Position numbers and translations under genes: made by a program
Notes under the pieces: model-generated
Seen by the model: only the letters and a program-made list of their open reading frames with translations
Told to the model about the DNA's origin: nothing
Databases searched by the model: none
Origin: a virus
DNA length: 44,350 nucleotides
UHGV virus genome: UHGV-0187309
Direction: 5' to 3' (one strand)
In this document: piece by piece, positions 21,470 to 40,371 of the stretch
Position numbering within the stretch: the stretch's first letter is position 1
Layout of the letters: the number at the start of each line of letters is the position of its first letter

Positions 21470-21495
21470 TAAATTTTTTGAAATTTTTTTTGATT

Positions 21496-21537: not shown

Positions 21538-21632
21538 GCGTTGTTCAGACCGACCACAAACACACTACAAACCAAGCGGGACTGACCGCCCCTATCACTA
21601 TGCAACACCACTGTGGAAAGGAGGCAGAGACA

Positions 21633-25991: not shown

Positions 25992-26305
25992 GAGCCAGAC
26001 TGAAACCGCCGGGAGATGCTGTCCGCTGCGATGCCTGCGGATGTGCCTTTGTGCCGGAGCCGAAAATGCAGCGTGAGGGAGAGATCGAATACAGCTTCCT
26101 CAACTGTGATTACTGTGGCAAAGCGTATATCGTGTCTGTGACCGATGCCGCACTCCGCCGGAGCATCCGCAAGTACCGGACGCTTGCCGAAAAGCTGAAG
26201 GGCAAGCCGTTGAGTGAAGATACGCTCCGTGAGGTCACGGCGCTGAAGGATGCGAACACAAAAAGAGCCGCAGAGCTGCGGCAGATGTATATTCGGGAGG
26301 GATGA
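25988..26305 (+). CDS. Small zinc-ribbon hypothetical protein
   Basis: CDACGC...CDYCG Cys4; translationally coupled between nrdG and the methyltransferase. Confidence 0.6.
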   Translation: MRARLKPPGDAVRCDACGCAFVPEPKMQREGEIEYSFLNCDYCGKAYIVSVTDAALRRSIRKYRTLAEKLKGKPLSEDTLREVTALKDANTKRAAELRQMYIREG

Positions 26306-26306
26306 G

Positions 26307-28350: not shown

Positions 28351-28582
28351 ATGTGCGGTCGTGACCGCTTACACAGAGATTTCTATGCTCAAGGGCGACG
28401 ATCTGAAATATCTGTATGACTATCTTTCCGGCTTTATCGGCAGACCGGTGTATACACACGAGATTTCTGCTGTGGTGATGGCTTACAGAGAGCAGATCAG
28501 GGAGGACTTCCTCGATCTGTGCAGGAACGCAAAGGAGGCGGATGATGGATCAGAAACACTTGACTCTCGGCAGCTTATTTGA
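28337..28582 (+). CDS. Small hypothetical protein
   Basis: 81 aa ORF from ATG 28337; overlaps both neighbouring genes; no recognisable motif. Confidence 0.45.
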   Translation: MTKHECAVVTAYTEISMLKGDDLKYLYDYLSGFIGRPVYTHEISAVVMAYREQIREDFLDLCRNAKEADDGSETLDSRQLI

Positions 28583-31145
28583 CGGCTCCGGTGGCTTTCC
28601 GCTTGGCGGCATCCTTGCAGGGATCGAGCCGAAGTGGAGCAGCGAAATTGAACCATTCCCGGTGCTTGTCACGCACAAGCGGCTGCCGCAGGTGAAGCAC
28701 TACGGCGATGTATCCAAACTGAACGGAGCAGAGCTTCCGCCGGTGGATATCATCACCTTCGGCAGCCCGTGTCAGGATCTGTCCATAGCGGGCAAGCGCG
28801 CCGGAATCCATGACGGTGATCGGTCAAACCTGTTCTTTCAGGCGATCCGCATCATCAAAGAAATGAGGGATGCAACAAATGGACGATATCCGCGATACTG
28901 CGTCTGGGAAAATGTCCCCGGCGCTTTCTCATCCAACGGAGGAAACGACTTCAAGGCTGTCCTCGAAGCAGTTATCGGAGTTAAAGAAAAAGGGATCGAG
29001 GTGCCTGCGCCTGAAAATCACAGATGGGCAAAATCAGACGTATATCTGGGAGACGGATGGAGCGTGGCTTACCGAGTTTTCGATGCTCAATACTGGGGTG
29101 TCCCCCAACGCAGAGCAAGAATCTACCTTGTCGCAGATCTTGCTGGTGGAAGTGCCGGAGAAGTATTATTTAAGTCCGAAGGCGTGTCTGGGTATACTCC
29201 GCAGGGCTTCCGTGCGTGGCAAGGAGCTGCCGGAGGTGCTGAAGAAGGCACTGGAGAGACAGGCGGGCGGTCTGACGCTGGAGGTGGAACCCTCTGCCTG
29301 AATACACAGGGCAACAGCGGCGTCGGCATCACCGAGAACAAGGCTCTCGCACTGGTCGCACAGGATCATGGCAATCATCCGGCTGTGCTTCATGCGGTCG
29401 GTATCGACGGCTACAATGCTGCGGTCACCGATGATACGGCAGCAACGCTTGGTGTGAACTGCGGAATGTCCACAGGCAGAAACGGTGTCCTGCAGGCGGC
29501 GGGATTTTCCACAGAACACAGTGCAAAAGCAAGGAGCATCGGCTACGAGGAAGAGGTATCTCCCACACTTCGAGCCGGTGTTGTTCCGGCGGCAATGGAG
29601 TTATATGAAAATCATGGGCAGGACAGCAGATTCAGAGGACCTTTGGATGTAGCACAGCCTGTGACTGCTACCTACGGCATGGGCGGCAACAATCAGCCGC
29701 TTGTGGTAGAGAACAATCCCACGGACGGCAGAGCGAAGATCAATCCCGACGGTGTGTTTCAGACGCTCTGCGGACGAGCCGGAACAGGCGGAAACAACAC
29801 GCCGCTTGTTGCTGAACCGGTCACGCTGAAAATCAGGTCGGGATGTGAGGGCGGTGGCAAGGGTGCTTTATGGCAGACCGACAAGTCTGCTACGCTCGGC
29901 ACAAACAATGACCAGAGTGTATTTGTTCCGTTCGTCAAGGGAACACGTCCGCACTCTGCTGAAGAGGGGCAAACATGGAAACCCGGCGAGGTCGCCAATA
30001 CACTGAATACCTTTGATGTCGGTGAAAGTCGCTGCAATGAACTTGTGGTGGAAGAGCCGCAGATCAGGGCTTTCGGTGTATGCAGCAAGCATTCCAATGC
30101 GATGATGTCCGACAATCCGCACAGCGGATTCTATGAGGCGACCACAAGCAGAACGCTCGACCAAAGTGGTGGAAATTCTGTGACATCGAATCAGGGCGGC
30201 ATCTGCGTGGTAGCACCTGCGCCTGAAACCTTCGATGTGCGTTTCACATCAGACGGTACAAAAAACGCTCGTGGGCATTGCTATCCGACAGACATCTCCC
30301 GATGCCTTGATACGAGCGAGGGATCGCCAGACTCGAATCACGGCGGTGTCGCTGTGGTGGCTCTTGAACCGGGGGCTGCATCACGTGTCGGCGGTCATGT
30401 ATACAGTGACGGCAAAAGCGGTACGCTTCGAGCCAATGCCGGCGATAATCAGCAGGCTGTTGTGGTCGCCGAGCCGGAGACCTATGCTCTGCAAGGCTCG
30501 ATGATCGGTCGTGCCGACAAGAACGGTCCGCAGGGTGATGGCATCAACGAGGATGTGTGCTTTACGCTCAATACATCGGACAGACACGCCATTGCCGCAC
30601 CTGATCCGTCCTTCACAATTTCCCGCGACAACCATTTTGCCGTTTCGGAGGATGTATCCGTTACAGCCGTGGCAAGAGGCCCTGCGGCAGTCGCAGCACC
30701 GGCAGACCACTATTGCACCAGTAAGAATTCGCATCATACGGTCGCCGCCCATGAGCAGGCAAACACGCTGGTCGCTTCCGACTGGAAGGATCCGCCGCTT
30801 GTGAACGACCTTCCGAATGACGAGCCAGTATATATCGTTCGCCGCTTGACTCCGGTTGAGTGCGCCAGATTGCAGGGATTCCCTGACTGGTGGTGTGCCG
30901 ACCTTGCAATTACTGATCCTTCCGATGAGGAGATCGCCTTCTGGACGGAGGTCTGGGAGACATGGCGGCAGGTCACAAATCCCAAGGGCAAGCCGAAAAC
31001 GGAAAAGCAGATCCGCAAATGGCTGGCTGATCCGTACACGGATTCAGCGGAGTACAAGCTGTGGGGCAACGGTGTCTCAGAGCCGGTCGTATACTTCGTG
31101 CTTTCCGGCATCGCATGGGCAGCGCAGAGAGATACACAAAAGTGA
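28542..31145 (+). CDS. DNA cytosine-5 methyltransferase with an unusually long, internally repetitive variable (target-recognition) region
   Basis: Motif I LFDGSGGF, motif IV GSPCQDLS, motif VI ENVPG in first ~130 aa; motifs IX/X (RRLTPVECARLQGFPDWW ... LWGNGVSEPVVYF) only in the last ~100 aa; ~600 aa in between with recurring TL-containing modules. True start may be ATG 28545. Confidence 0.85.
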   Translation: MMDQKHLTLGSLFDGSGGFPLGGILAGIEPKWSSEIEPFPVLVTHKRLPQVKHYGDVSKLNGAELPPVDIITFGSPCQDLSIAGKRAGIHDGDRSNLFFQAIRIIKEMRDATNGRYPRYCVWENVPGAFSSNGGNDFKAVLEAVIGVKEKGIEVPAPENHRWAKSDVYLGDGWSVAYRVFDAQYWGVPQRRARIYLVADLAGGSAGEVLFKSEGVSGYTPQGFRAWQGAAGGAEEGTGETGGRSDAGGGTLCLNTQGNSGVGITENKALALVAQDHGNHPAVLHAVGIDGYNAAVTDDTAATLGVNCGMSTGRNGVLQAAGFSTEHSAKARSIGYEEEVSPTLRAGVVPAAMELYENHGQDSRFRGPLDVAQPVTATYGMGGNNQPLVVENNPTDGRAKINPDGVFQTLCGRAGTGGNNTPLVAEPVTLKIRSGCEGGGKGALWQTDKSATLGTNNDQSVFVPFVKGTRPHSAEEGQTWKPGEVANTLNTFDVGESRCNELVVEEPQIRAFGVCSKHSNAMMSDNPHSGFYEATTSRTLDQSGGNSVTSNQGGICVVAPAPETFDVRFTSDGTKNARGHCYPTDISRCLDTSEGSPDSNHGGVAVVALEPGAASRVGGHVYSDGKSGTLRANAGDNQQAVVVAEPETYALQGSMIGRADKNGPQGDGINEDVCFTLNTSDRHAIAAPDPSFTISRDNHFAVSEDVSVTAVARGPAAVAAPADHYCTSKNSHHTVAAHEQANTLVASDWKDPPLVNDLPNDEPVYIVRRLTPVECARLQGFPDWWCADLAITDPSDEEIAFWTEVWETWRQVTNPKGKPKTEKQIRKWLADPYTDSAEYKLWGNGVSEPVVYFVLSGIAWAAQRDTQK

Positions 31146-31222
31146 ACGCATAACGTGCCCGTTTTGAAACGATGAAACGAAAACTCCCGAATCTGCGTTA
31201 CTTTGATTTCGCAAAGATACAC

Positions 31223-31405
31223 TCATTCAGATTTCTTGTCTCCGCCAAGCTCGATCTTTCCGTGCTTTTCCTCATATTTTTCAATGCAGTCACGGATCAG
31301 GATCAGAACCTGACTGTTGGCAGAACGACCTTCGTAATCGGCAACAACGTGAAGTTTATCAAGCATCTCCTGTTCGATACGGATGGATACACTTTTAATA
31401 GCCAT
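31223..31405 (-). CDS. Ribbon-helix-helix (CopG/Arc/MetJ-like) DNA-binding protein
   Basis: 60 aa; MAIKSVSIRIEQEMLDKL N-terminal beta-strand plus helices typical of RHH; only minus-strand gene in a long plus-strand block. Confidence 0.7.
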   Translation of the reverse strand: MAIKSVSIRIEQEMLDKLHVVADYEGRSANSQVLILIRDCIEKYEEKHGKIELGGDKKSE

Positions 31406-31518
31406 AAAACAACTTCCTTTCAGATATATTATGACTTTATTTTAGACCTGTTTTGTGGTATAATGTTTGAAATGGATATAAAGTGTATCTAAAATATATC
31501 TATAAGAAGTTGTACGAT

Positions 31519-31857
31519 ATGAAAATAGCAATTATTGGCTCACGGGGACTTCATGTGAATGACCTTGAACGGTATCTTCCGGAAGATGTCACAGAAATCG
31601 TCAGCGGAGGAGCAAGGGGCATTGATTCGGATGCGCGGGCATACGCACAGGCACACGGCATTCCGCTGAAGGAGTTTCTGCCGGATTATGAACGCTTCGG
31701 CAGGAGCGCCCCGCTGAAACGGAATCTTGAGATCATCGCTTATGCCGATGTGGTGCTTGCATTCTGGGACGGACAGTCACGCGGCACGAAATATGTGATA
31801 GACCATTGCCGGGAACAGCACGTTCCGGTCAGGGTTTTCGCACCGAGAAAGAAATAG
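31519..31857 (+). CDS. SLOG-superfamily (DprA/LOG-like, DUF2493-like) small Rossmann-fold protein
   Basis: KIAIIGSRG ... VSGGARGIDSDA ... AFWDGQSRGT pattern shared with DprA/LOG-type domains; extended -10 TGGTATAAT promoter just upstream. Confidence 0.65.
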   Translation: MKIAIIGSRGLHVNDLERYLPEDVTEIVSGGARGIDSDARAYAQAHGIPLKEFLPDYERFGRSAPLKRNLEIIAYADVVLAFWDGQSRGTKYVIDHCREQHVPVRVFAPRKK

Positions 31858-31861
31858 TAAT

Positions 31862-31935
31862 AAAGAAGCCATGCAGCAAATTGTGAACATTCTGATACTA
31901 AATCAGATGTTCTGCCGCAGGGCTTCTTTCTATTC
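31862..31935 (+). terminator. Long hairpin terminator after the SLOG gene
   Basis: AAAGAAGCC ... GGCTTCTTTC inverted repeat with inner CTGAT/ATCAG hairpin, followed by T-rich tract. Confidence 0.5.
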
Positions 31936-31991
31936 TGTACTATGCACAATCTAAAGGGCAGACACGCCCCGTACATTCTCCGTTTTACAGT

Positions 31992-32035
31992 CTTGCATTC
32001 CGGGGCAAAAGACGGTAATATGTGACTACGAAAAC
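31992..32035 (+). promoter_or_regulatory. Cassette promoter P1 (CTTGCA-18-TAATAT) with conserved GTGAC downstream box
   Basis: First of nine near-identical promoter units; precedes ATG 32090. Confidence 0.6.
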
Positions 32036-32089
32036 GCCGCAGCCCAACGCACAAGGCTGAGGGGCGGCAGTAAAAACGGAGGTAATCAT

Positions 32090-32998
32090 ATGGAAATCAA
32101 GTTCAATATTGAAAAGAGCCAGCGCAAGGCACTGGCACAGAAAATCGGCGAGCTGACAGGAGCAGAGGTCAAGTACCTCGGTGTACCGGGCTGCAGATAC
32201 CAGATCGACTTCTTCACCCTGGACAAAAACGCAGTCCTCAGTTTCAGCGACCGCATCGACACAGATATCGTGGAGAAGGTACTGAATGGGCTTGCAGAGG
32301 CAGGATATGAAAGCAAAACAGTAGCACCGCCGGAAGAAACGGATGCTTCGGCTGAATCAGAGCCGGATATCCCTGACGAACCGAGCAGCGGATTTCCGCT
32401 GCTCGCAAGCATCAGCTTCCCGATTGCAGAGCACACGGTGCAGAGCCTTACAAACCTTATCTGCATGATCCACTCCCGCGGCGCACTTCTCAGCAAGGCG
32501 ACCGGCGGACAGTTCTTCGCAGACAAGAGCCTCGCCGATGCGATCCTCGATGACAAGACCTTCCGCAGCATCCACGAGCTTATCGCCTACATCAGAGTAT
32601 GGGAGGAAACGAATCCCGAACTGAAGGGCATCCGTTTCGCCGATGACAAGCTGATCTTTGACGGCTTCGGTGCAGCGCAGGATGCCGAAACGGTGCAGAC
32701 CTTCACCAAGCTCGCCACAGCCATGAACAGGATGGCGATCACGCAGAAACGTGTGCAGGCAAAGGATGTCGATGACAGCAACGAAAAGTACGCACTCCGC
32801 ATCTGGCTGATCCGCCTTGGGCTGAACGGCGCAGACTGCAAGGTTGACCGCAAGCGCCTCATGGCTCCGCTTTCCGGACACACCGCATTCCGCAACGATG
32901 CGGAGCGTGTGCGCTGGGAGGCAAAGCAAAAGGCAAAGCGTGATGCTGCCAGAACCGAACTGACCGAGGAGGATGAAAACGATGCAGTTTCCGAATGA
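32090..32998 (+). CDS. Hypothetical protein
   Basis: 302 aa; ACGGAGGTAA RBS; no recognisable motif. Confidence 0.75.
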   Translation: MEIKFNIEKSQRKALAQKIGELTGAEVKYLGVPGCRYQIDFFTLDKNAVLSFSDRIDTDIVEKVLNGLAEAGYESKTVAPPEETDASAESEPDIPDEPSSGFPLLASISFPIAEHTVQSLTNLICMIHSRGALLSKATGGQFFADKSLADAILDDKTFRSIHELIAYIRVWEETNPELKGIRFADDKLIFDGFGAAQDAETVQTFTKLATAMNRMAITQKRVQAKDVDDSNEKYALRIWLIRLGLNGADCKVDRKRLMAPLSGHTAFRNDAERVRWEAKQKAKRDAARTELTEEDENDAVSE

Positions 32999-33230
32999 AA
33001 GACAGCTCAGAGCCTTGCGGGAGCGTTATCCCGCAGGCACCCGCATCCGACTGAAGCATATGGATGACCCTTATGCACCCGTACCGCCCGGCACGGTCGG
33101 CGAGGTTCAGATGGTTGATGACGGCGGCAACATACACATGGTCTGGGAGAATGGCAGAACGCTCTCCCTTATAGACGGTGTCGATGATTTCCAGGTCATT
33201 TCTGACCGCAATGGGGGCTCCGGAAAATAA
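32982..33230 (+). CDS. DUF4314-like small protein
   Basis: PAGTRIRLKHMDDPYAPVPPGTVGEVQMVDDGGNIHMVWENGRTLSLIDGVDDF matches the DUF4314 pattern as I recall it; start at ATG 32982. Confidence 0.65.
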   Translation: MQFPNERQLRALRERYPAGTRIRLKHMDDPYAPVPPGTVGEVQMVDDGGNIHMVWENGRTLSLIDGVDDFQVISDRNGGSGK

Positions 33231-33341
33231 GAGATCCTATTCCATTGTATCCGAGTATACCATAGAATTTCAAGTATATCAAGTGTACACATACACCAGA
33301 TATGAGCAATGTATTTTCCTCGATATTCTGTGGTTTTAGCG

Positions 33342-33402
33342 GCTTGCTATATCCTCCGAAAGACGGTAATATGTGACACAACGGAAGGGCAAACGCCCAC
33401 CG
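33342..33402 (+). promoter_or_regulatory. Cassette promoter P2 (CTTGCT-19-TAATAT) plus conserved leader hairpin
   Basis: TAATATGTGACACAACGGAAGGGCAAACGCCCACCGAAAA leader. Confidence 0.6.
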
Positions 33403-33427
33403 AAAAACCGAATCGGAGGATACCAAA

Positions 33428-34372
33428 ATGACTGAGAAAACCGCACAGCAGATCAACAGAATGAAGGAGCAGACCATCGGGGTTGAGATCGAGATGAACA
33501 ACATCACCCGCAAGGCTGCCGCAAAGCTCGCCGCCGACTTCTTCGGCACGAACCGCTACGAGGACACGGCCTGCCGCAACGGCTACGAAACCTACAGTGC
33601 TTGGGACGCACAGGGACGCGAGTGGAAATTCCAGAAGGACGTCAGCATCGCAGGCCCCGACAGCGAAAAGTGCGAACTGGTCACACCGATCCTGCACTAC
33701 GCAGACATCGAAACCCTGCAGGAGCTTGTGAGAAGGCTCAGAAAGGCAGGAGCGCGCAGTGATTACACGCGGGGATGTGGAGTCCACTGCCACATTGGAG
33801 CCCAGGGACACACACCGCAGAGCCTCAGAAACCTCGCAAACCTTATGGCAAGCCACGAAACCCTGATCGCCGAGGCAATCAGAGTAGACCAGAGCAGAAT
33901 GCACCGCTACTGCAGAACAGTTGACCCGAGATTCCTTGAACAGCTCAACCGCAAAAAGCCCACCACGATGGCACAGCTTGCGGACATCTGGTACGGCGCA
34001 CAGGGCTGCGAATACGGCAGAACCCACCACTACAACGACAGCCGCTATCACATGCTCAACCTCCACGCTACCTTCACCAAAGGCACGGTCGAGTTCAGAC
34101 TTTTCCAGTTCGCACCGCCTTCCAACGGCAAGCAGAACGGGCTCCACGCAGGCAAGCTCAAGAGCTACATTCAGCTCTGCCTCGCAATGAGCCAGATGGC
34201 AAAGGACCTGCGGAGCGCCAGCCCCAAGGAACAGCAGAAGGAAAACAAAAAGTTCGCCATGCGGACTTGGCTGATGAGAATGGGATTCATCGGGGATGAA
34301 TTCGCAACGGCGAGAGAGGTCCTCACTGAGAACCTTACGGGCGACAACAGCTTCCGCTTCGGCAGATCTTAA
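33428..34372 (+). CDS. Putative amidoligase (glutamine-synthetase-like fold, Amidoligase_2-type)
   Basis: 314 aa; GVEIEMNN (ExE motif) and GCGVHCHIGAQGH (HxH motif) as in GS-like amidoligases of phages and conjugative elements; family call from memory. Confidence 0.7.
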   Translation: MTEKTAQQINRMKEQTIGVEIEMNNITRKAAAKLAADFFGTNRYEDTACRNGYETYSAWDAQGREWKFQKDVSIAGPDSEKCELVTPILHYADIETLQELVRRLRKAGARSDYTRGCGVHCHIGAQGHTPQSLRNLANLMASHETLIAEAIRVDQSRMHRYCRTVDPRFLEQLNRKKPTTMAQLADIWYGAQGCEYGRTHHYNDSRYHMLNLHATFTKGTVEFRLFQFAPPSNGKQNGLHAGKLKSYIQLCLAMSQMAKDLRSASPKEQQKENKKFAMRTWLMRMGFIGDEFATAREVLTENLTGDNSFRFGRS

Positions 34373-34636
34373 AGGCCTGCCCTTCGGGGCGGAAGAACAA
34401 GCGGAACGGCACGGCGGCGCACACAGCCGCCACGGTCTCGGCTCTCGCCTCGGTCGGTGCTTCTGCTTCGCAGAGGTTGCCACTGGCAACCCGCACCCCC
34501 GTGTGTGGCGGAAAGGGTATCCTCCGAATCGGTATCCCATCTCAGTCAACCGCGCCACACAGCGCAAATGTAGGCAAGGCATAAAATGCACAACATACGG
34601 CACAGAATCGCCCTCGATGATCTGTTCATTTACCCG

Positions 34637-34666
34637 CTTGATAATGCCGCCGAAATGAGTTAACAT
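34637..34666 (+). promoter_or_regulatory. Cassette promoter P3 (CTTGAT-18-TAACAT)
   Basis: Same -35/18/-10 geometry as other cassette promoters; precedes ATG 34706. Confidence 0.5.
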
Positions 34667-34705
34667 AGCACTACCGCAAGGAAAAAACGCAAAGGAGAAC
34701 ATAGC

Positions 34706-35173
34706 ATGAACAAGAAAAAATACTACATAGCCTACGGCAGCAACCTCAACATCCGCCAGATGCGATTCCGCTGCTCAGGCGCAAAGCCCATCGGCATTTC
34801 CGCGATTCCTGACTACGAACTGCTCTTCAAGGGCAGCAAGACGGGAGCGTACCTCACCATCGAGCCGAAGGACGGCGGGCTTGTTCCGGTCGCCGTGTGG
34901 GAAGTGACAGCCGACGATGAGAAGCACCTCGACATCTACGAGGGCTACCCGAACTTCTACTACAAGAAGGAAGTCCGCCTGCCAATCAGGCTGGCAAACG
35001 GCAAGACCAAAAAGGTCACGGCATTTGTCTACATCATGCACGAGGAGCGTGAGATTGCGATCCCGTCAATGACCTACATCCGCACCTGCGAGGAAGGCTA
35101 CCGCAACTTCGGCTTCGACACCAAGTTCCTTGATGCCGCCTACGAGATCAGCGCAAAGGAGGTACAGCGATGA
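34706..35173 (+). CDS. Gamma-glutamyl cyclotransferase-like (GGCT/AIG2-like) protein
   Basis: N-terminal YYIAYGSNLN signature and YEGYP Glu-containing motif. Confidence 0.8.
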   Translation: MNKKKYYIAYGSNLNIRQMRFRCSGAKPIGISAIPDYELLFKGSKTGAYLTIEPKDGGLVPVAVWEVTADDEKHLDIYEGYPNFYYKKEVRLPIRLANGKTKKVTAFVYIMHEEREIAIPSMTYIRTCEEGYRNFGFDTKFLDAAYEISAKEVQR

Positions 35174-35370
35174 AAGACCGCAACAAAGAGCCGCACATCT
35201 GCCCGAAATGCGGGCAGGCGTACACCGCCCGACCAGCTCTTTCCCGCGTGGATAACAGCCCAATCTGCCCCGACTGCGGAACGCGTGAAGCGCTTGAAAG
35301 CATCGGCGTCGGACGCGAGGAACAGGACAAGATTCTCGGCATCATCCACGAGAAGTACGAAGGCGAATAA
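35170..35370 (+). CDS. Small zinc-ribbon protein
   Basis: 66 aa; CPKCG...CPDCG Cys4; start overlaps the GGCT-like stop (ATGA). Confidence 0.6.
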   Translation: MKDRNKEPHICPKCGQAYTARPALSRVDNSPICPDCGTREALESIGVGREEQDKILGIIHEKYEGE

Positions 35371-35378
35371 GTCGGCAC

Positions 35379-35402
35379 AAAGGGGCGTTACAGCCCCTTT
35401 CC
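35379..35402 (+). terminator. Hairpin AAGGGGC-GTTACA-GCCCCTT after the zinc-ribbon gene (candidate terminator)
   Basis: 7 bp GC-rich stem with weak T-tract. Confidence 0.4.
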
Positions 35403-35526
35403 GCATTCTCAGGGATAACTTATCCCCCACTTTCCGGGCGTGACACGGCGCGTTCTGGCGCAAACTATGTACCTGTTCAGCTTGCTGAAAACGGCGATTC
35501 TTCTACGATTTATTTTGCACATAGGC

Positions 35527-35590
35527 GTGGACTTTTCAGGCAAAAGGCGGTAGTATGTGACACAACGGAAGGGCAGACAGCCCACCGGAA
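35527..35590 (+). promoter_or_regulatory. Cassette promoter P4 (GTGGAC-18-TAGTAT) plus conserved leader hairpin
   Basis: TAGTATGTGACACAACGGAAGGGCAGACAGCCCACCGG. Confidence 0.55.
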
Positions 35591-35613
35591 TTCATAACAT
35601 GGAGGATACGAAC

Positions 35614-36084
35614 ATGAACGACAGCTACTTTGAGGAGATGACCTTCCAGTGCGCCGCCTATGAACGCGCCAAAAAGGAGCGCGCCGAGCGCAAGGCTCAG
35701 ATTGCCGAAGCCCACGGCTACGACAGCCCGGAGGTGGACGCTTGGTACGCTGAGGAGAAGGCGGCAGGTCCTTACCCCTACAGCGGCAATGAGATGAAAG
35801 CCTACTGGGTGTACAAGATGCGCCGCGAGAACGACGGTGACGAGTTCGAGATGAGCGATTACTGCTGGGACAAGGAATTCCACGATTTCATCGAAACGCT
35901 CCGCAAGCTAGGCATCACCGAGTTCACGATCACCAATCAGAGCACGGCGCTGATGGAGAACATCTACGGATTTATTGCAGAAGGCTGCACGATGGTCGGA
36001 ACGCACACCATCACCAAGAAGAGCCTGCGCTGGGGCGAGGAAGAATACGAAACGGCACAGGGCATCCTTTTCAAGGTGAACTGA
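35614..36084 (+). CDS. Hypothetical protein
   Basis: 156 aa from ATG 35614 (GGAGGATACGAAC RBS). Confidence 0.7.
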   Translation: MNDSYFEEMTFQCAAYERAKKERAERKAQIAEAHGYDSPEVDAWYAEEKAAGPYPYSGNEMKAYWVYKMRRENDGDEFEMSDYCWDKEFHDFIETLRKLGITEFTITNQSTALMENIYGFIAEGCTMVGTHTITKKSLRWGEEEYETAQGILFKVN

Positions 36085-36092
36085 TATCGACA

Positions 36093-36130
36093 GGAGCAGG
36101 GCTTCGGCTCTGCTCCCCTCCCCCTTTTCC
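36093..36130 (+). terminator. Rho-independent terminator-like hairpin (10 bp stem, TTCG loop)
   Basis: GGAGCAGGGC-TTCG-GCTCTGCTCC followed by CCTCCCCCTTTTCC; near-identical hairpin also after 38529. Confidence 0.55.
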
Positions 36131-36200
36131 TCATGTGTAAATCCTACAATACGAAAGGCTGAGATCGGCGATTCTTCTACGTTTTATTTTGCACATAGGC

Positions 36201-36270
36201 GTGGACTTATCAGCAGGATCATGGTAATATGTGACACAACGGAAGGGCAGAACGCCTACCGAAAAACGAA
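36201..36270 (+). promoter_or_regulatory. Cassette promoter P5 (GTGGAC-18-TAATAT) plus leader hairpin
   Basis: TAATATGTGACACAACGGAAGGGCAGAACGCCTACCGAAAA. Confidence 0.55.
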
Positions 36271-36285
36271 ACGGAGGATAACACC

Positions 36286-36606
36286 ATGAACCCCTACACA
36301 CTGAGAAAGAGCCTGAACCTGATTGATGCCAACACGGCGATCACCCGCGAGGACTTCGAGAGCCTCTTCTGCAAGACTGCAGAGCGTGTCACCTTTACCT
36401 TCAACGGTTGGGACGGCAAGAGCTATGATGGCGAGAGGCGCAGCGGTTACGTTTACCGCACCATCATCGAGGGCTACGAGAATGTGAGATTCGTTAAGGT
36501 CGGCAAGGGACTGCATTACATCGATGAGGACAGCAGCATTACCGAGAAGGCTACGGGCATCGCCCACAAGGAAGCAGAGTGGCTGGTCGATGTGAAGAGA
36601 GCATAA
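36286..36606 (+). CDS. Hypothetical protein
   Basis: 106 aa; ACGGAGGATAA RBS. Confidence 0.7.
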   Translation: MNPYTLRKSLNLIDANTAITREDFESLFCKTAERVTFTFNGWDGKSYDGERRSGYVYRTIIEGYENVRFVKVGKGLHYIDEDSSITEKATGIAHKEAEWLVDVKRA

Positions 36607-36672
36607 GCAAAACAGCGGAGCCCTTCCTGCGGGGAGGGCTTACCGCAGAAAAAAACATGGAGGTTTACGAAC

Positions 36673-37056
36673 ATGAGTACGAATTCAAGAGTCGGAATTC
36701 TGCATCAGGACGGCGTCACGGAGACAATCTACTGCCATTGGGACGGCTACCCCGAACACCAGATGCCCATCCTCACCGAGCATTATAACACCGCCGAGAA
36801 GGTCAAGGCACTGCTTGCCCTTGGAGACATCAGCATCCTCGGCGAGCGCCTTGCTCCCGATGCGGATGAGCCGCACAGCTTTGAAAAGCCTGCCGATGGT
36901 GTGACGGTTGCTTACCACCGCGACCGCAAAGAGCCGATGCAGCCTGCGGTCACCCACAAGAGCGTTGTTTCCCTGATGAGCGATGACTGGGGCATTCCGT
37001 ATTACTACCTTTTCGATGAGGAAAAAGGAGCATGGCTTCCGCCGACCGAGGACTGA
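36673..37056 (+). CDS. Hypothetical protein
   Basis: 127 aa; GGAGG RBS; co-transcribed position after 36286 gene. Confidence 0.7.
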   Translation: MSTNSRVGILHQDGVTETIYCHWDGYPEHQMPILTEHYNTAEKVKALLALGDISILGERLAPDADEPHSFEKPADGVTVAYHRDRKEPMQPAVTHKSVVSLMSDDWGIPYYYLFDEEKGAWLPPTED

Positions 37057-37235
37057 TAGGTTCAGCCCTGCGGGGCTGACTTGCCCCACGTTGTCCTTTG
37101 TGCGGTTTTCCTGCGATAAGCTTGCCCCTGCGGAAAGCCGCCTCACACGGCGCGTTTGTGTGCCTCCTGTGGGCTTGGTGCTATGTATACAACAAATGGC
37201 GCAGATACGCCGATTTTGTTCTGAACATTTAGCCG

Positions 37236-37300
37236 CTTGCTATTCCGGAAAGATCATGGTAATATGCTACACAACGGAAGGGCAAACGCCCACCGAATAC
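37236..37300 (+). promoter_or_regulatory. Cassette promoter P6 (CTTGCT-18-TAATAT) plus leader hairpin
   Basis: TAATATGCTACACAACGGAAGGGCAAACGCCCACCGAATAC. Confidence 0.55.
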
Positions 37301-37321
37301 AAAACACGGAGGTAAACCACC

Positions 37322-37687
37322 ATGACAAAGAAGGAAATGAAAGCCGCAGTTGCCAAGCTGAAGATGCTGCAGAACGGCAAAGCCGCCCTTGAGGGAATGA
37401 CCGAAGCGGACTGCCTTGAGCTTTTCGGGATCAGCAGAGCGCAGGCACTTGCAAACACAAACGCCGCCCTTGCCAAAACCGAGCAGGAGATTTTCAGAGC
37501 CGAGCATCCGCTGACAGGCATCGACAAACAGCTCTTCGAGATCGCAGCAAAGCACCTGATCACGGTGCAGGAGCGCGGAGACCTTGAAGCCCGCCACTGC
37601 GACAGCGAGGACTTCATCGAGGGTTCGGTCTGGGGGCTGGAAGCCGCCCTCAAGGATGCCTACGAGGCAGGACGCAAGAGCAAGTAA
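37322..37687 (+). CDS. Hypothetical protein
   Basis: 121 aa; ACGGAGGTAAACC RBS. Confidence 0.7.
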   Translation: MTKKEMKAAVAKLKMLQNGKAALEGMTEADCLELFGISRAQALANTNAALAKTEQEIFRAEHPLTGIDKQLFEIAAKHLITVQERGDLEARHCDSEDFIEGSVWGLEAALKDAYEAGRKSK

Positions 37688-37749
37688 CCAAACGGAACAG
37701 CGCAGCCCTTCCGCAGGGAGGGGCTGCCAATCCCGAAGGAGGAAAGAAC

Positions 37750-37929
37750 ATGGATACATACGCACAGCTTGAAATGCTGACCGCAGTCATCGCAAACCTG
37801 TCGGCCACGGGAACATGGACGGAGCGAGAAGTGATGGAAACGCTGCTGGATGTCTTTGAACCGAAGGAGCTTGAACAGCTCGGCTACGGCGACTGCGTGA
37901 ACGCATACTTGGAAGAGTACGGCGGATAG
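37750..37929 (+). CDS. Small hypothetical protein (59 aa), absent from the supplied ORF track
   Basis: ATG 37750 preceded by GAAGGAGGAAAG RBS; translation MDTYAQLEMLTAVIANLSATGTWTEREVMETLLDVFEPKELEQLGYGDCVNAYLEEYGG; TAG at 37927-37929. Confidence 0.55.
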   Translation: MDTYAQLEMLTAVIANLSATGTWTEREVMETLLDVFEPKELEQLGYGDCVNAYLEEYGG

Positions 37930-38098
37930 CGACGACACACGCACCACGTTGCCTCGTGTGGGGCGGTGCCGGGGAGATGCGTACAGCTTGCCCCTGCGAA
38001 AAGCCGCCTTACACGGCGCGTTCTGGCGCGTCCTATACGATGTACAATTCCGCCCGACTTCCCGCCTCATGTTTGTCACATTTATTTTGCAGACAGAC

Positions 38099-38135
38099 GT
38101 GGACTTTTCTGCGAAAAGACGGTAATATGTGACTA
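38099..38135 (+). promoter_or_regulatory. Cassette promoter P7 (GTGGAC-18-TAATAT)
   Basis: GACGGTAATATGTGACTAC core as in P1. Confidence 0.55.
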
Positions 38136-38175
38136 CCGCAAGAGAAGCGGAATCAATCAAAAGGAGCGAATCTAC

Positions 38176-38529
38176 ATGAAAATTCTGGTATGCGAACCCG
38201 GCAAGCACCCCTACGTCAAGGACATCGAGTCGGGGCTGGAGAACCTTCAGCACGAGGTGGACGGACTGATTCAGGCCCTCTACCCATTTTCCGAAGAGGC
38301 GGCTGTTGTGTGCAACGAAGAAGGGCTGTTCCGCGATGACCTCGAATGGAACAGAACGGTCGATCCCTATGGTCCGATCAAGGGAACATTCTTCATTTGT
38401 GGGCTCGGCTTTGAAGATTTTACAGGACTGACCGATGAACAGATCGAAAAGTACACTAAGCTCTTCTGGCCTCCTGAGCTTTTCATCCCGACACCGAACG
38501 GCATGGTGGTGCTTCACATTGTGGAATGA
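38176..38529 (+). CDS. Hypothetical protein
   Basis: 117 aa from ATG 38176 (AAAAGGAGCG RBS). Confidence 0.7.
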   Translation: MKILVCEPGKHPYVKDIESGLENLQHEVDGLIQALYPFSEEAAVVCNEEGLFRDDLEWNRTVDPYGPIKGTFFICGLGFEDFTGLTDEQIEKYTKLFWPPELFIPTPNGMVVLHIVE

Positions 38530-38631
38530 CCGCAACAGGGGCAGGGCTTCGGCTCTGCTCCGCACTATTCCCCGGTCATAATGTACACAACTGAACGCCG
38601 AAAAATGCAGAAATGATCGTGATTACTCACG

Positions 38632-38695
38632 CTTGATAATGTAGGCAAGAAGAGTTATACTGTGTACAACGGAAGGGCGGAAAGCCCAGCCGAAA
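38632..38695 (+). promoter_or_regulatory. Cassette promoter P8 (CTTGAT-18-TATACT) plus leader hairpin
   Basis: TATACTGTGTACAACGGAAGGGCGGAAAGCCCAGCCGAAAA. Confidence 0.55.
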
Positions 38696-38718
38696 ACGAA
38701 AATGCGGAGGTACACACC

Positions 38719-38898
38719 ATGAAAACGAAGCAGGAACTGATCGAGAAGGCAAAGAAAGAGTGGGGCGAGACTTGGAACGAGGGCATGATCGAGTACGATG
38801 CCGAGTACAACGAGTACATCGTCTGGGTAGGCAAGCCGGACATCTACAAAGCCTTCTTCGATGCCGACACCCTCAGATGCATTGGCACGAAGTGCTGA
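38719..38898 (+). CDS. Small hypothetical protein (59 aa)
   Basis: ATG 38719 with GCGGAGGTACAC RBS. Confidence 0.6.
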   Translation: MKTKQELIEKAKKEWGETWNEGMIEYDAEYNEYIVWVGKPDIYKAFFDADTLRCIGTKC

Positions 38899-38953
38899 GA
38901 ACAACCGCCGCCCTTCGGGGCGGCACAACACCAATACTAAGGAGGACATTTAC

Positions 38954-39226
38954 ATGAGCGAGAACACAGAAAAGCGCGATGCAGCCGAAGAACTAGAACT
39001 TACCGATGCACAGGCAGACCGCAACGATGACATCTACGAGGCAGCTTTTGAATTCTGCAAGGTGCTGACCGAGAACCCCGACCTCGAATGGGACATGGCG
39101 TTCCTCGGTGAGATCGCCGACCTTGCCGCTGGCATCATGACCGAGCAGGGACACAAGGTGCGGTTCCCCAGTGTGGTCACCGAGCAGGACGGCACGCAGT
39201 ACATTGAAGAATACTACGGCGGCTGA
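38954..39226 (+). CDS. Small acidic hypothetical protein (90 aa)
   Basis: ATG 38954 with AAGGAGGACA RBS; highly acidic. Confidence 0.65.
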   Translation: MSENTEKRDAAEELELTDAQADRNDDIYEAAFEFCKVLTENPDLEWDMAFLGEIADLAAGIMTEQGHKVRFPSVVTEQDGTQYIEEYYGG

Positions 39227-39426
39227 TCGGCAAAACGGAGCAGTCCTTCTGCGGAGGGGCTGTTCCACGCCACGTTCGCTTGTGTGGGGGGCTTACGGCT
39301 TTCTGCGGATATCTTGCCCCGCGATAAAAGCCGCCCACACGGCGCATTTGTGTGCCTCCTGTGGCAAGGCATAATATGTACAACAACCGACAAAAAATCG
39401 CCTTGCACATTCTGGTAGTTTAGCCG

Positions 39427-39490
39427 CTTGATATATCTGCCGAAAAGAGTTATAGTGTGTACAACGGAACGGGAAACCGAGCCGAAAACT
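39427..39490 (+). promoter_or_regulatory. Cassette promoter P9 (CTTGAT-18-TATAGT) plus leader hairpin
   Basis: TATAGTGTGTACAACGGAACGGGAAACCGAGCCGAAAA. Confidence 0.55.
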
Positions 39491-39512
39491 ACGAAAGAAC
39501 GAGGTAAACACT

Positions 39513-39749
39513 ATGTGGCACGAAGGCACGATTCTGGCACCGACCAAGGAAGGCAAGACGGTGGTTCACTACTGGGCAAAGGTCTACGACGAGGGCAGCC
39601 AGTACGGCATCAACGAGGGCAGAATCAGTAAACTGACACTCAAGGAGAATGGCAAGGTCATCTACAACTATGACAGAGGCGAGGATGTACCCGAGCAGAA
39701 CGAGGCTGCGGAGATTGCCCTTGCGATCCTGATGTACGAGTACAAGTAA
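39513..39749 (+). CDS. Small hypothetical protein (78 aa)
   Basis: ACGAGGTAAACACT RBS. Confidence 0.65.
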   Translation: MWHEGTILAPTKEGKTVVHYWAKVYDEGSQYGINEGRISKLTLKENGKVIYNYDRGEDVPEQNEAAEIALAILMYEYK

Positions 39750-39834
39750 ATAGAACGGTCGGTAGGCGGTAGCATTAAGCCGCCCATCCAAACCAAGACG
39801 GACACACATATAAATTCAAGGTGGATATACATAG

Positions 39835-39870
39835 GAGAGGCTTGCAGCACGCAGGCCTTTTCTTTATGCA
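39835..39870 (+). terminator. Candidate terminator hairpin before the packaging genes
   Basis: AGGCTTGC-AGCAC-GCAGGCCT stem-loop followed by TTTTCTTTAT. Confidence 0.45.
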
Positions 39871-39897
39871 GATTTTTTGAGAAAAGGAGTGATGCGG

Positions 39898-40371
39898 ATG
39901 GCTCAGAGAGGCAGAAAACCGACGCCGACAGCAATCAAGGAACTGGAAGGCAATCCCGGAAAACGACCGCTGAATGATGCAGAGCCGAAGCCGGAACGCA
40001 AGGCACCGCCCTGTCCGAAGTGGCTGGAGCCCGAAGCAAAAAAGGAATGGCGCAGGCTGTCAAAGCAACTGGAGCAGATTGGTGTGCTGACCGAGGTCGA
40101 TCAGGCGGCATTCGCATCCTACTGTCAGGCATACGCACGATGGAAAGAAGCCGAGGAATTCATGACCCAGCACGGCACGATCGTAAAAACAAAATCAGGT
40201 TACTGGCAGCAGGTTCCGCAGGTATCCATTGCGCAAACTTATCTGAAGATCATGAACAAGATCGCAGAGCAGTTTGGCCTGACCCCGGCGGCAAGAAGCC
40301 GTATCACTGCCGGCGCAGATATGAAAAACGCTGCCGTTGACGATATGGATGAACTTCTCGGAGGTGGCTGA
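39898..40371 (+). CDS. Terminase small subunit (P27-family-like)
   Basis: MAQRGRKPTPTAIKELEGNPGKRP N-terminus and FGLTPAARSRI near the C-terminus; immediately upstream of and overlapping terminase large subunit. Confidence 0.8.
   Translation: MAQRGRKPTPTAIKELEGNPGKRPLNDAEPKPERKAPPCPKWLEPEAKKEWRRLSKQLEQIGVLTEVDQAAFASYCQAYARWKEAEEFMTQHGTIVKTKSGYWQQVPQVSIAQTYLKIMNKIAEQFGLTPAARSRITAGADMKNAAVDDMDELLGGG

Follow-up and report, generated by a model that had tools for sequence, protein, structure and literature searches.

The window, a 44,350-nucleotide stretch of the virus genome UHGV-0187309, belongs to a tailed phage that has TerS and TerL and encodes CI-like S24 repressor, ImmA-like, sigma-70 region-4, and MazF/PemK-like proteins. 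This phage is best explained as temperate and Ca. Heliusvirales-like, with Clostridia of the rumen or gut as hosts. The methylase genes and terS (39892-40371) flank a gene block that ends, just upstream of terS, in a strong intrinsic-terminator-like hairpin (39833-39868, + strand, -19.6 kcal/mol, with a U tract). A sequence-only reading had placed an array of nine co-oriented promoter and leader units here, and the array is present at 31993-39515, with all units on the + strand and each made up of a -35 box, a spacer, a -10 box, a Shine-Dalgarno (SD) sequence, and an ATG. The -35 hexamers are TTGCAT, TTGCTA, TTGATA, or TGGACT, and the -10 hexamers are TAATAT, TAGTAT, TAACAT, TATACT, or TATAGT. 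The spacer, previously given as 18 or 19 bp, is 17 bp in 9/9 units in the canonical TTGACA/TATAAT frame.

The first unit, P1 (31993-32092), has TTGCAT at 31993-98 and TAATAT at 32016-21, followed by a variant long hairpin (32036-68, -14.9 kcal/mol), GGAGG at 32078-82, and an ATG at 32090; a gene for a 302-aa protein (PHROG 'amidoligase enzyme' region) comes first, followed by one for DUF4314. P2 (33344-33430) combines TTGCTA and TAATAT (33367-72) with a canonical two-tier hairpin (33382-33402, z -3.1; 69.1 bits with the covariance model discussed below) and GGAGG (33415-19) ahead of the 314-aa Amidoligase_2 gene (ATG 33428). The spacer of the P2 promoter, TATCCTCCGA, and the P2 SD region are reverse complements of each other. 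P3 (34638-34708) is a degenerate member with TTGATA, TAACAT (34661-66), no credible hairpin, and an AGGA SD, and it precedes genes for a GGACT cyclotransferase (ATG 34706) and a 66-aa zinc ribbon. P4 (35528-35616) has TGGACT, TAGTAT (35551-56), a hairpin at 35566-87 (z -3.7; 67.1 bits), GGAGG (35601-05), and the ATG of a DUF7698 gene at 35614. In P5 (36202-36288), TGGACT is followed by a spacer with the TG of an extended -10, TAATAT (36225-30), a hairpin with a G.U closing pair (36240-61; 71 bits), GGAGG (36273-77), and an ATG at 36286, with genes for 106-aa and then 127-aa proteins.

The spacer of P6 (37237-37324) also carries TG, between TTGCTA and TAATAT (37260-65); a hairpin (37275-95; 73.8 bits) and GGAGG (37308-12) lead to genes for DUF6900 (ATG 37322) and a 59-aa protein. 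P7 (38100-38178) has TGGACT, TAATAT (38123-28), a variant hairpin, CCGC-N7-GCGG (38136-50, z -2.4), and an AGGA SD before a DUF3846 gene (ATG 38176). P8 (38633-38721) has TTGATA, TATACT (38656-61), a hairpin at 38670-92 (-13 kcal/mol, z -3.6; 55.3 bits), and GGAGG (38706-10), followed by genes for a 59-aa protein (ATG 38719) and a 90-aa protein. The last unit, P9 (39428-39515), has TTGATA, TATAGT (39451-56), a GAAA-loop hairpin whose inner stem is the alternative CGG/CCG (39465-84, z -4.2; 47.6 bits), and a GAGG SD before a DUF7678 gene (ATG 39513).

These repeats are far above chance. Searching with ACAACGGAASGGS at ≤1 mismatch gave 6 matches against 0.13 expected, and GGTAATATGTGAC at ≤2 mismatches gave 6 against 0.75. 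The covariance model R1 scored six units at 47.6-73.8 bits (E-values 1e-12 to 1e-20); P7 and P1 reached 18.5 and 17.6 bits, and the 6.1 bits of P3 (E = 3.8) fell short of significance. Scanning the window with the model found the unit type nowhere outside the block. The leader ACAACGGAAGGGC...GCCC had been ascribed to the whole array and holds for six units only (P2, P4, P5, P6, P8, and P9). It fails for P1, with its different, longer hairpin; for P7, with its 4-bp CCGC/GCGG hairpin; and for P3, where folding gave -1.1 kcal/mol (z = -0.05). The term 'near-identical' overstates the likeness: non-orthologous units of the family are ~67% identical over roughly 100 nt. The earlier observation is real and partly confirmed, and its interpretation is partly supported.

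The unit is found well beyond this genome. Its exact 25-mer occurs in 48 IMG/VR loci, the unit recurs in ~40 other viral contigs, and the covariance model finds 227 units at E <= 1e-3, in a sample biased to canonical units because relatives were fetched via the exact 25-mer. Seven matches come from rumen Clostridia metagenome-assembled genomes. Ca. Heliusvirales phages in GenBank carry divergent copies; these apart, searches of Rfam, GenBank phages, and PLSDB (the last by blastn) gave no match. Blocks hold 4 to 11 units and are flanked by conserved methylase and terminase genes, and units are kept in phages whose amidoligase DNA is only ~73% identical. At least 17 gene families lie directly downstream of a unit, and one gene family is preceded by up to 7 combinations of -35/-10 types. 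In line with the check suggested for related genomes, the same unit precedes different genes and is not confined to one genome.

The sequence-only reading had stressed compensatory changes in the leader hairpin, and within the window the case is thin: the P8 inner stem is GGGC/GCCC as in other units, with a different loop, and the only stem differences are P9 (CGG/CCG) and one G.U pair in P5. A second, outer tier of the hairpin, CGG...CCG, had been overlooked. The six canonical window copies fold with z-scores of -3.1 to -4.2, and 127/140 unique family leaders fold at <= -5 kcal/mol, with the stem starting 0-4 nt past the assumed transcription start in 119/127 of them. Once relatives are added, covariation is real. 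The outer stem is CGG:CCG versus CCG:CGG or CGC:GCG, and the inner stem is GGGC:GCCC versus GGC:GCC, CGG:CCG, AGGC:GCCU, or GGG:CCC. Stem cells are paired at 89% in a structure-blind MAFFT alignment and at 92% in the model alignment, both-sided changes occur in 5/7 stem pairs, and pairing falls to 42-49% when the partner is shifted by a single column. The covariation score of 0.175 compares with 0.042 in shuffles and was reached by 0/500 of them, a control that does not amount to a probability because the alignment rows are related sequences. Compensatory changes are thus present across the family when the aligned units are scored against shuffles, and the G.U pairs of the stem are sensible on + strand RNA only. 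With the family sampled, the proposal that the leader RNA structure is under selection is supported. The leader sequence ACAACGGAAGGGC is conserved beyond what structure alone would need, and this excess may point to a sequence-specific partner. P3-type units persist even without a hairpin.

The earlier proposal of promoters driving short transcription units stands as a prediction, since the units resemble sigma-70/sigma-A promoters joined to a structured 5' leader and a strong SD. Among 138 unique family units, the -35 box reads T(0.99) T/G G(0.90), 110/138 have TAATAT as the -10 box, the TG of an extended -10 occurs in 36%, and the upstream tract is 69% A+T. Judged by hexamers, 17-bp spacing, and the A+T-rich tract upstream, the units fit a housekeeping sigma, so the reading factor, previously left undecided, can probably be narrowed down to this type; the phage also encodes a sigma-70 region 4 protein. 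Most units match the sigma-70 consensus at 8/12 positions only, and a generic promoter scan detected only three of them. The linker between hairpin and SD is 64% A and 6% G across the family, and no particular openness is predicted for the SD (mean probability unpaired 0.47). Promoter activity, start sites, promoter strength, and expression timing are predictions here.

Cassette exchange can be read from junctions between close relatives. Two cassettes, P7-DUF3846 and P8-59aa-90aa, make up a segment of ~1.25 kb on the + strand (38023-39269) that this genome shares with two other loci (L024 and L026) and that is missing from six loci otherwise 92-99% identical. The junction in these six has a 78-nt overlap inside the repeat D3, a + strand intergenic module that forms a stem-loop between cassettes (GCTTGCCCC..AAAGCCGCC.CACACGGCGC.TTTGTGTGCCTCCTGTGG) and has three copies, at 37108-37172, 37974-38038, and 39300-39364. 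The second is the left recombination site of the indel, with homology in relatives reaching 38022; the third (fold z -3.7) is the right site, with homology restarting at 39270. The crossover maps to the shared AAAAGCCGCC. In two loci (L010 and L019), homology stops directly past the hairpin of P4, where another SD and another gene take over, and in another (L004), a deletion of 37164-37774 has one end only in a repeat. Indel and replacement junctions thus fall inside repeated modules, as cassette exchange had implied, and related phages appear to have gained, lost, and swapped cassette genes via recombination at repeated control sequences. Covariation, recurrence in other contigs, and these junctions together run counter to both outcomes that had been set against the sequence-only reading, namely a lack of covariation and confinement to a single genome without exchange.

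The block also holds four + strand 'ghost' units. The one upstream of P3 (34573-34612) has a -10-like box and ACAAC without hairpin, SD, or gene; the one upstream of P6 (37172-37211, E 0.83) ends in a small GGCG-N6-CGCC hairpin and then a T-run; the others lie upstream of P8 (38570-38609, E 0.1) and P9 (39363-39402). Behind most genes of the block stands a G+C-rich 3' stem-loop, for example on the + strand at 36089-36120, with others at 35379-35402, 36615-46, 37058-82, 37700-27, 38538-61, 38907-24, and 39237-66.

The region is probably a hyperplastic accessory block assembled from self-contained expression cassettes of the sigma-A type, with a stabilizing 5' hairpin and repeated control DNA that serves as recombination homology. 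Each cassette would start with a housekeeping-sigma (sigma-A/sigma-70-type) promoter, composed of an A+T-rich upstream tract, TTGnnn, 17 bp, and TAnnnT, and the predicted start of transcription would lie within ACAAC, a conserved stretch free of G. A small two-tier RNA hairpin, made of a 3-bp outer stem and a 3-5-bp inner stem with an internal loop between them, would follow ~0-4 nt on, and after it an A-rich linker, the GGAGG SD, the ATG, and one to three small ORFs, mostly with a G+C-rich 3' stem-loop behind them as a putative terminator. The 5' hairpin and strong ribosome-binding site may act as a 5' mRNA stabilizer that would restrict access of RppH, RNase J, and RNase Y and thereby allow good expression of every inserted gene, independent of its neighbors. 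[quoted passage not shown] Because promoter, leader, and the upstream D3 module are repeated between unrelated genes, the control DNA could provide homology for recombination by which related phages lose, gain, and exchange cassettes. What is directly observed is the repeat family with its conserved geometry, the conservation and covariation of its hairpin, and the recombination junctions.

A possible but unlikely alternative is that the units are mainly a regulatory target, where a phage factor (the repressor, the sigma-region-4 protein, or the MazF-like endoribonuclease) binds DNA around +1 or the RNA hairpin and controls a nine-cassette regulon. Transient expression on entry would then resemble that from the EGeRS2 promoters of pLS20-family plasmids or aca-controlled anti-CRISPR promoters, and repeated regulatory sequences upstream of several establishment operons are a precedent (PMC8708921). 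The phage encodes such candidates along with an ImmA-like protein, the unit type is absent elsewhere in the window, short palindromes (TGTACA, GTGACAC, and CGTGA-N4-TCACG) recur near -50 and +1, and ACAACGGAA and the stem sequences are near-invariant in most units despite differing -35 modules, spacers, and loops. However, no one dyad-symmetric operator is kept across the -35 module types, P6 and P9 have no TGTACA boxes, the block holds no candidate regulator gene, and compensatory stem changes fit a requirement for shape rather than fixed sequence. Such control and self-contained cassettes are not mutually exclusive. An attenuator or insulator blocking read-through or antisense transcription, in place of a stabilizer, is improbable. 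The stem-loops of the T4 promoter-early stem-loop (PeSL) cassettes do terminate transcription, some just downstream of a -10 box (PMC2839356), and a partly T-rich stretch, TTCCGTTGTGT, comes after the hairpin on the minus strand. On the + strand, however, CCGAAAAC follows without a U tract, and an attenuator past its own promoter would also stop its own transcript. The + strand G.U pairs become A.C mismatches on the minus strand, and separate, stronger stem-loops already stand at gene 3' ends and in D3.

It is likewise improbable that these are ordinary promoters whose similarity is a neutral by-product of duplication and recombination in a fast-evolving region. Unit identity between orthologs does track the coding sequence (0.87 with CDS ~0.9, 0.66 with CDS ~0.5), no sign of homogenization is seen within a genome, and the ghosts are decayed copies. 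Nonetheless, non-orthologous units beside unrelated genes share their geometry and are still ~67% identical, the hairpin survives both-sided changes and stays at a fixed distance from the -10 box, and units persist where amidoligase DNA is only ~73% identical. The likeness to plasmid leading regions fared worst. That the units are single-strand (Frpo/ssi-type) promoters or single-stranded hairpin sites akin to integron attC is largely refuted and hardly credible, even with conjugative-element-like content (ParB-methylase, C5 methylase, SLOG, DUF3846, DUF4314, and amidoligase) and a DUF3846-ArdA fusion elsewhere. DNA folds of neither strand set the -35/-10 in a long imperfect hairpin, the DNA that a tailed phage with TerS and TerL delivers is double-stranded, neither a relaxase nor an integron integrase is found among the phage genes, the junctions lie in extended homology rather than at a core site, and blastn against PLSDB gave no match.

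The cassettes compare better with other phage systems. The suggested parallel with the T4 PeSL holds functionally, as a non-homologous analogue, and T4-like phages exchange genes by recombination at repeated control sequences, as is proposed here; lambdoid morons are another non-homologous analogue. All cassette proteins are DUFs or have no assigned function, and their genes would at most be putative 'anti-defence' genes. The one hint in that direction comes from an Oscillospiraceae element, whose conjugative-element-like region encodes a DUF3846-ArdA fusion.

The block between the methylase genes and terS carries nine promoter-leader units (P1-P9, 31993-39515) on the plus strand, each ending at an ATG with a Shine-Dalgarno (SD) site before it. 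Reading 31800-39800 and aligning the nine upstream regions confirmed the number and position of the units proposed in the sequence-only reading. R1, a covariance model of the unit, detects no copy in the window outside this block, whose 7.5 kb hold all nine. In the canonical frame, the -35 hexamers are TTGCAT, TTGCTA, TTGATA or TGGACT, and the -10 hexamers are TAATAT, TAGTAT, TAACAT, TATACT or TATAGT. The boxes are separated by exactly 17 bp in all nine units; the 18 or 19 bp originally reported resulted from hexamers taken one base off. The 13-mer ACAACGGAASGGS occurs six times with at most one mismatch (0.13 expected) and GGTAATATGTGAC six times with at most two (0.75 expected), and six copies score 47.6-73.8 bits with R1. 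The repeated units are not a product of chance. The leader as first quoted holds for six units (P2, P4, P5, P6, P8 and P9) and fails for the other three: P1 has a different and longer hairpin, P7 a hairpin of 4 bp and P3 none. These three score 17.6, 18.5 and 6.1 bits, respectively, the P3 match not being significant (E = 3.8). A generic promoter scan of the window recovered only P3, P8 and P9, because the remaining six match the consensus at only 8 of 12 positions, and the terminator count from the generic scan was no higher in the window than in shuffles.

Several features of the unit were measured across the wider family. The DNA upstream of the -35 box averages 69% A+T in 138 unique units, the phage itself having ~49% A+T; the boxes follow the consensus TTG... 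/ TA...T, and an extended -10 (TG in the spacer) is found in 36% of members. The -10 box is followed by a variable 4-5 nt and then by a G-free ACAAC (or ACTAC), within which the transcription start is predicted to lie. The linker between the hairpin and the SD is A-rich (64% A, 6% G), and the unit closes with GGAGG, 7-10 nt and the ATG. An exposed SD was considered as a further feature of the unit and dropped, given that its mean predicted unpaired probability across the family is only 0.47. Many family units read GGAGG-N3-5-(A)CCACC-ATG, for example at 37308-37324, where a weak SD-occluding hairpin is possible. In P2, the promoter spacer TATCCTCCGA (33350-33359) and the SD region TCGGAGGATA (33414-33423) are exact reverse complements of each other. 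Only RNA that reads through from upstream could form this pairing, which could silence translation of that RNA; the same pair also occurs in the amidoligase units of other contigs.

A hairpin in the leader had been recognized from the sequence, yet only in part, as its outer CGG...CCG tier was missed. The full structure has two tiers, with an outer stem CGG...CCG, an internal loop AA/R, an inner stem GGGC...GCCC and a loop of 3-5 nt, and an energy of -8 to -13 kcal/mol. In the six canonical units the hairpin leaves a 5' single-stranded tail of 2-3 nt, if the start is the seventh nucleotide after the -10 box, and all six beat dinucleotide shuffles (z -3.1 to -4.2). The proposal that the leader is selected for RNA structure is thin within the window, where compensation is limited to the CGG/CCG stem of P9 plus one G.U pair; it gains its strength across the family. 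Searching by way of the -10 box instead of the leader recovered varied leaders, many of which differ in sequence while keeping shape and position. The outer stem appears as CGG:CCG, CCG:CGG (a full flip, ACTACCGAAAGGC...GCCUGCGG), CGC:GCG or CGGC:GCCG, and the inner stem as GGGC:GCCC, GGC:GCC, CGG:CCG, AGGC:GCCU or GGG:CCC. A fold of -5 kcal/mol or lower is found in 127 of 140 unique leaders, and in 119 of these 127 the stem begins 0-4 nt (+/-1 nt) from the assumed start.

An R1 alignment of the top 150 matches was too uniform to reveal covariation; loci with less redundancy were therefore used. In a structure-blind MAFFT alignment (A2) of sequences that are related to one another and come from a sample seeded with an exact word, 89% of cells are paired and five of seven pairs have changed on both sides, with the observed pairing values reached by none of 500 shuffles. 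In the less redundant model alignment (A4), which shares these properties and itself leans towards structure, 92% of cells are paired, against 42-49% after a one-column slide; five of seven pairs and 25 cells have changed on both sides, and the covariation score is 0.175 versus 0.042 in shuffles (0/500 reach the observed value). G.U pairs are tolerated in the stem (GGGC...GCCU), where the opposite strand would have A.C mismatches, indicating that the plus-strand RNA is the form concerned. Together, the alternative stems, two-sided changes and G.U pairs argue that structure is conserved in the leader more than sequence.

The unit family extends well beyond this genome. The exact 25-mer GTAATATGTGACACAACGGAAGGGC is present in 48 loci on ~40 IMG/VR contigs, with no locus exceeding four copies, and R1, built from 106 unique units, finds 227 units at E <= 1e-3 in the 547 kb searched. 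A 20-mer scan of GTDB genomes gave seven loci, in rumen metagenome-assembled genomes of Clostridia, Ruminococcus and Oscillospiraceae and in one short contig binned as Bacteroidales. Divergent units are also present in Ca. Heliusvirales phages in GenBank, which were reached via their amidoligase genes and not via the unit motif. Ruminococcus phage NatCom_23091 has four (56, 39, 35 and 17.5 bits), and some other Heliusvirales phages have a minimal leader, ACTACC-N5-GG. With the whole unit as query, blastn found no match in 50,697 GenBank phage records or in the PLSDB plasmids. No Rfam family reached its gathering score anywhere in the window; at E <= 1, the only Rfam match in 31.8-39.9 kb was a chance-level one to PhotoRC-I (17.5 bits, gathering score 45). 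A tRNA/tmRNA search found none. The Heliusvirales literature does not mention promoters, intergenic repeats or stem-loops.

Comparison of related loci, in all of which plus-strand ORFs were called and clustered, shows the cassettes (a unit plus its gene or genes) being gained, lost and replaced within a fixed frame. The flanking order is conserved: ParB-methylase and C5-methylase families precede the block and TerS, TerL and portal follow it, while the number of units in between varies from 4 (L010) through 9 in the window to 11 (L035, L043 and L044). At least 17 gene families lie directly behind a unit, and as many as seven combinations of -35 and -10 types occur in front of a single gene family. 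The 1.25-kb stretch 38023-39269, made up of the DUF3846 cassette and a cassette encoding 59-aa and 90-aa proteins, is missing from six loci (L004, L029, L031, L034, L042 and L050) with 92-99% identity to the window. At the resulting junction the alignments of the six loci overlap by 78 nt. The junction sequence corresponds on the left to the second copy and on the right to the third copy of D3, a 65-nt intergenic repeat, and the crossover falls in their shared AAAAGCCGCC. Direct repeats that recombine homologously leave this signature. In loci L010 and L019, homology with the window spans the P4 promoter and hairpin and ends right after the hairpin; the linker, SD and gene beyond it differ from those in the window, and homology returns in D3 copy 3. 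The same unit therefore precedes different genes. Not all events are repeat-mediated, since only one end of a deletion in L004 (37164-37774) falls in a repeat. There was no signal of concerted evolution within a genome, as identity among nonorthologous units is 67% within a locus and 66% between loci, and the identity of orthologous units follows that of the adjacent coding DNA.

The long spacers of the block are mosaics of a few repeated modules: D3 (three copies, at 37108-37172, 37974-38038 and 39300-39364), a 56-nt module carrying the TGGACT box and a 90-nt module. D3 was rejected as a strongly structured element, with one of three copies clearly beating shuffles (z = -3.7; the others -1.4 and -1.3), as was the G+C-rich 333-nt spacer at 34373-34705 as a structured RNA (z -1.3 and -1.7), which is explained by composition. 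A G+C-rich stem-loop lies 3' of most block genes, and terS is separated from the block by a strong U-tract hairpin (39833-68, -19.6 kcal/mol). Four decayed unit copies, or ghosts, were seen at 34573-34612, 37172-37211, 38570-38609 and 39363-39402, ~75 nt upstream of P3, P6, P8 and P9. They have a -10-like box and ACAAC and lack a hairpin, SD or gene; they may be tandem promoters or remnants left by lost cassettes.

The gene content of the window points to a temperate phage, including a CI-like HTH-S24 repressor and an ImmA-like protein, along with DUF2800, SSB, DNA polymerase A, an SNF2 helicase and a D5 primase. A 275-aa protein (6842-7669), recognizable only through sigma-70 region 4 (aa ~186-274), may be a phage sigma-like activator. 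A MazF/PemK-like toxin gene (17130-17648) overlaps the start of the D5 primase gene and has no obvious antitoxin; the annotation "MazF-like growth inhibitor" recurs in further Heliusvirales phages (L051, L053 and L054). Directly upstream of the block, 20309-31857 encodes MetK (SAM synthetase), the anaerobic ribonucleotide reductase NrdD, a ParB-N6 methylase fusion, an 867-aa multidomain C5 methylase and a SLOG/DprA-like protein. The block is followed by TerS (Terminase_4) and an 888-aa TerL (40371-43037), which carries LAGLIDADG_3 (aa 303-369) ahead of its ATPase and nuclease domains. Relatives have either this LAGLIDADG_3 TerL cluster or another (families 30 and 12 in the clustering), which suggests an intein or homing-endonuclease polymorphism.

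Searches of Pfam, PHROG and NCBIfam left most of the cassette proteins without a function. A 302-aa protein matches part of a PHROG "amidoligase" profile, and others belong to DUF4314, Amidoligase_2, GGACT, zinc ribbon, DUF7698, DUF6900, DUF3846 and DUF7678; five small proteins have no Pfam family, four of them also having no PHROG match. In a Vescimonas fastidiosa replicon (L062, NZ_AP023416.1 627426-629198), DUF3846 is found inside a 590-aa gene annotated as ArdA whose neighbors are conjugative-element genes (Topo III, DUF4366, TnpV-like and SLOG). This fusion is a hint of an anti-restriction link for DUF3846.

A composite explanation seems somewhat more likely right than wrong: the block would consist of autonomous expression cassettes whose repeated control DNA aids recombination. 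The promoters would be read by the host housekeeping sigma factor, because the TTG/TAnnnT positions, 17-bp spacing, TG extension and UP-like tract fit sigma-A and not ECF-type or known phage-specific promoters. Transcripts beginning in the G-free ACAAC would have no G at position 2, and B. subtilis RppH prefers G at this position (PMC3997798). The hairpin and strong RBS would then shield the 5' end of the mRNA much as in the aprE leader, where a stem-loop and RBS are protective (references in PMC3997798). Taken by itself, this stabilizer role could about equally well be right or wrong. The 3' stem-loops, D3 and the terminal terminator are envisaged as insulating the cassettes from one another and from the packaging operon. 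Any gene put behind a unit would gain autonomous expression, and the repeated control DNA would ease gene gain, loss and exchange; recombination is the best-supported part of the explanation.

Other accounts were considered. Neutral duplication leaves the compensatory changes and fixed position of the hairpin unaccounted for. The units could share a regulatory target, recognized by a repressor, a sigma-like protein or an RNA-binding or RNA-cleaving factor; the near-invariance of ACAACGGAAGGGC would suit such a target, but no common dyad operator was seen and there is no regulator inside the block. This reading is rather unlikely. A bolder version, which must be thought quite improbable, casts the block as the phage counterpart of a plasmid "establishment regulon," with the ACAAC-hairpin leader as a recognition tag for a phage-encoded factor, a role going beyond passive stabilization. 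Insulated, individually promoted host-takeover or anti-defense genes would lie at the genome end by the packaging site. The factor might, for example, be the lineage-conserved MazF-like endoribonuclease, cleaving read-through transcripts at ACA immediately 5' of the hairpin, or the sigma-region-4 protein; either way, all cassettes would be processed or coregulated together. A captured gene would, if this were true, join the program merely by recombining behind a unit.

The leader hairpin is also unlikely to be a terminator of the kind found in the promoter-early stem-loops (PeSLs) of T4-type phages, given that it lacks a U tract, sits 3' of its own promoter and shows a strand bias in its G.U pairs. 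Integron cassettes are promoterless, bounded by attC and adjoin an IntI integrase. An integron-like reading was rejected, as every cassette here has its own predicted promoter and the junctions lie in extended homology; no tyrosine recombinase was found in or adjoining the block. In a single-strand promoter of the Frpo/ssi type, the -35 and -10 boxes pair with a complementary arm in a long imperfect hairpin of single-stranded DNA. This type was likewise set aside, since DNA folds of three units on both strands give only the small leader hairpin and leave the -35 and -10 boxes outside any long stem.

For the composite explanation of mobile expression cassettes, one close known parallel is the PeSL system (Arbiol et al. 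2010, PMC2839356; Comeau et al. 2014, PMC4122927). Both have a sigma-70-like promoter with an upstream A+T-rich tract, a stem-loop, an SD and a start codon; both populate a hyperplastic region, with copies upstream of small genes of unknown function; in both, indel and replacement junctions between close relatives fall in the motifs (in the block, D3 and the end of the P4 hairpin); and a terminator, predicted in the block, sets the region apart from virion genes. The likeness drawn in the sequence-only reading thus stands as an analogy in working. The block is not a member of the PeSL group, because the two are not homologous and belong to different phage orders: there is no sequence relationship, and the block resides in a temperate siphovirus-like Heliusvirales phage, with Clostridia as a different host phylum. 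It has 4-11 copies in one region compared with ~50 PeSLs over several. The formation of cassette mini-circles also counts among the defining features of PeSLs. In addition, the PeSL stem-loop terminates or attenuates transcription, whereas the stem-loop conserved in the units is predicted to form a 5'-UTR hairpin that lacks a U tract, and termination is probably left to the separate 3' stem-loops and D3.

[quoted passage not shown] Morons, however, are single unrelated insertions with dissimilar signals, usually of atypical G+C, while the block has many cassettes sharing one homologous control module and a G+C content near that of the remaining phage (0.52-0.56 vs 0.51-0.55 in neighboring DNA). 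Like the 5' stabilizers of Firmicutes and E. coli (aprE, ermC and ompA; PMC3997798), the units have a small stable hairpin near a predicted 5' end, followed by a strong SD, with shape kept more than sequence; the stabilizers are single-gene leaders with measured half-life effects, in contrast to a multicopy mobile module whose 5' end and effect are predicted.

Plasmids offer a parallel in EGeRS1 and EGeRS2 of the pLS20 family (PMC8708921), where one regulatory sequence likewise precedes several short operons of mosaic genes. EGeRS and plasmid leading-region anti-defense islands (PMC11541004) also share with the block methylases and DUF3846 linked to ArdA. These systems belong to conjugative plasmids and have no sequence likeness to the units. 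EGeRS1 lacks a strong sigma-A promoter and spans 400-600 bp, EGeRS2 depends on a plasmid repressor, and Frpo elements are single-strand hairpin promoters, all unlike the units. The SAS and ESAS of Cluster K mycobacteriophages (PMC3203893) are short repeats directly before many start codons, associated with different gene families across related phages and in some cases with an inverted repeat, as in the units. They differ in that the 13-bp SAS motif overlaps the ribosome-binding site and has no promoter, ESAS has 17-bp inverted repeats, and both are genome-wide with no role in recombination shown.

The feature is real and well delimited, an independent and conceptually unsurprising example of a known principle. 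Mobile regulatory cassettes extend beyond the T4-like phages that infect Gram-negative hosts; temperate Clostridia phages of an unrelated and widespread lineage reached the same solution independently, and the unit delimits their hyperplastic region. R1 provides a simple marker for accessory and candidate anti-defense genes in gut and rumen viromes. As compact natural promoter, 5'-UTR and RBS parts, the units are candidate tools for the hard-to-engineer Oscillospiraceae and Ruminococcus, and they present a testable case of 5'-hairpin-dependent mRNA stabilization in phage genes.

Two minor observations were made in the block. The AT-rich spacer before P2 has two overlapping sigma-70-like sites on the minus strand (33244-33282), TTGATA-17-TATACT with TG and TTGAAA-18-TACAAT, which could form an antisense promoter. 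The plus-strand AT skew is 0.19-0.27 in 32000-40000 versus ~0.03-0.13 in the other plus-strand-coded parts of the window, and this richness of A over T is only partly due to the A-rich leaders.
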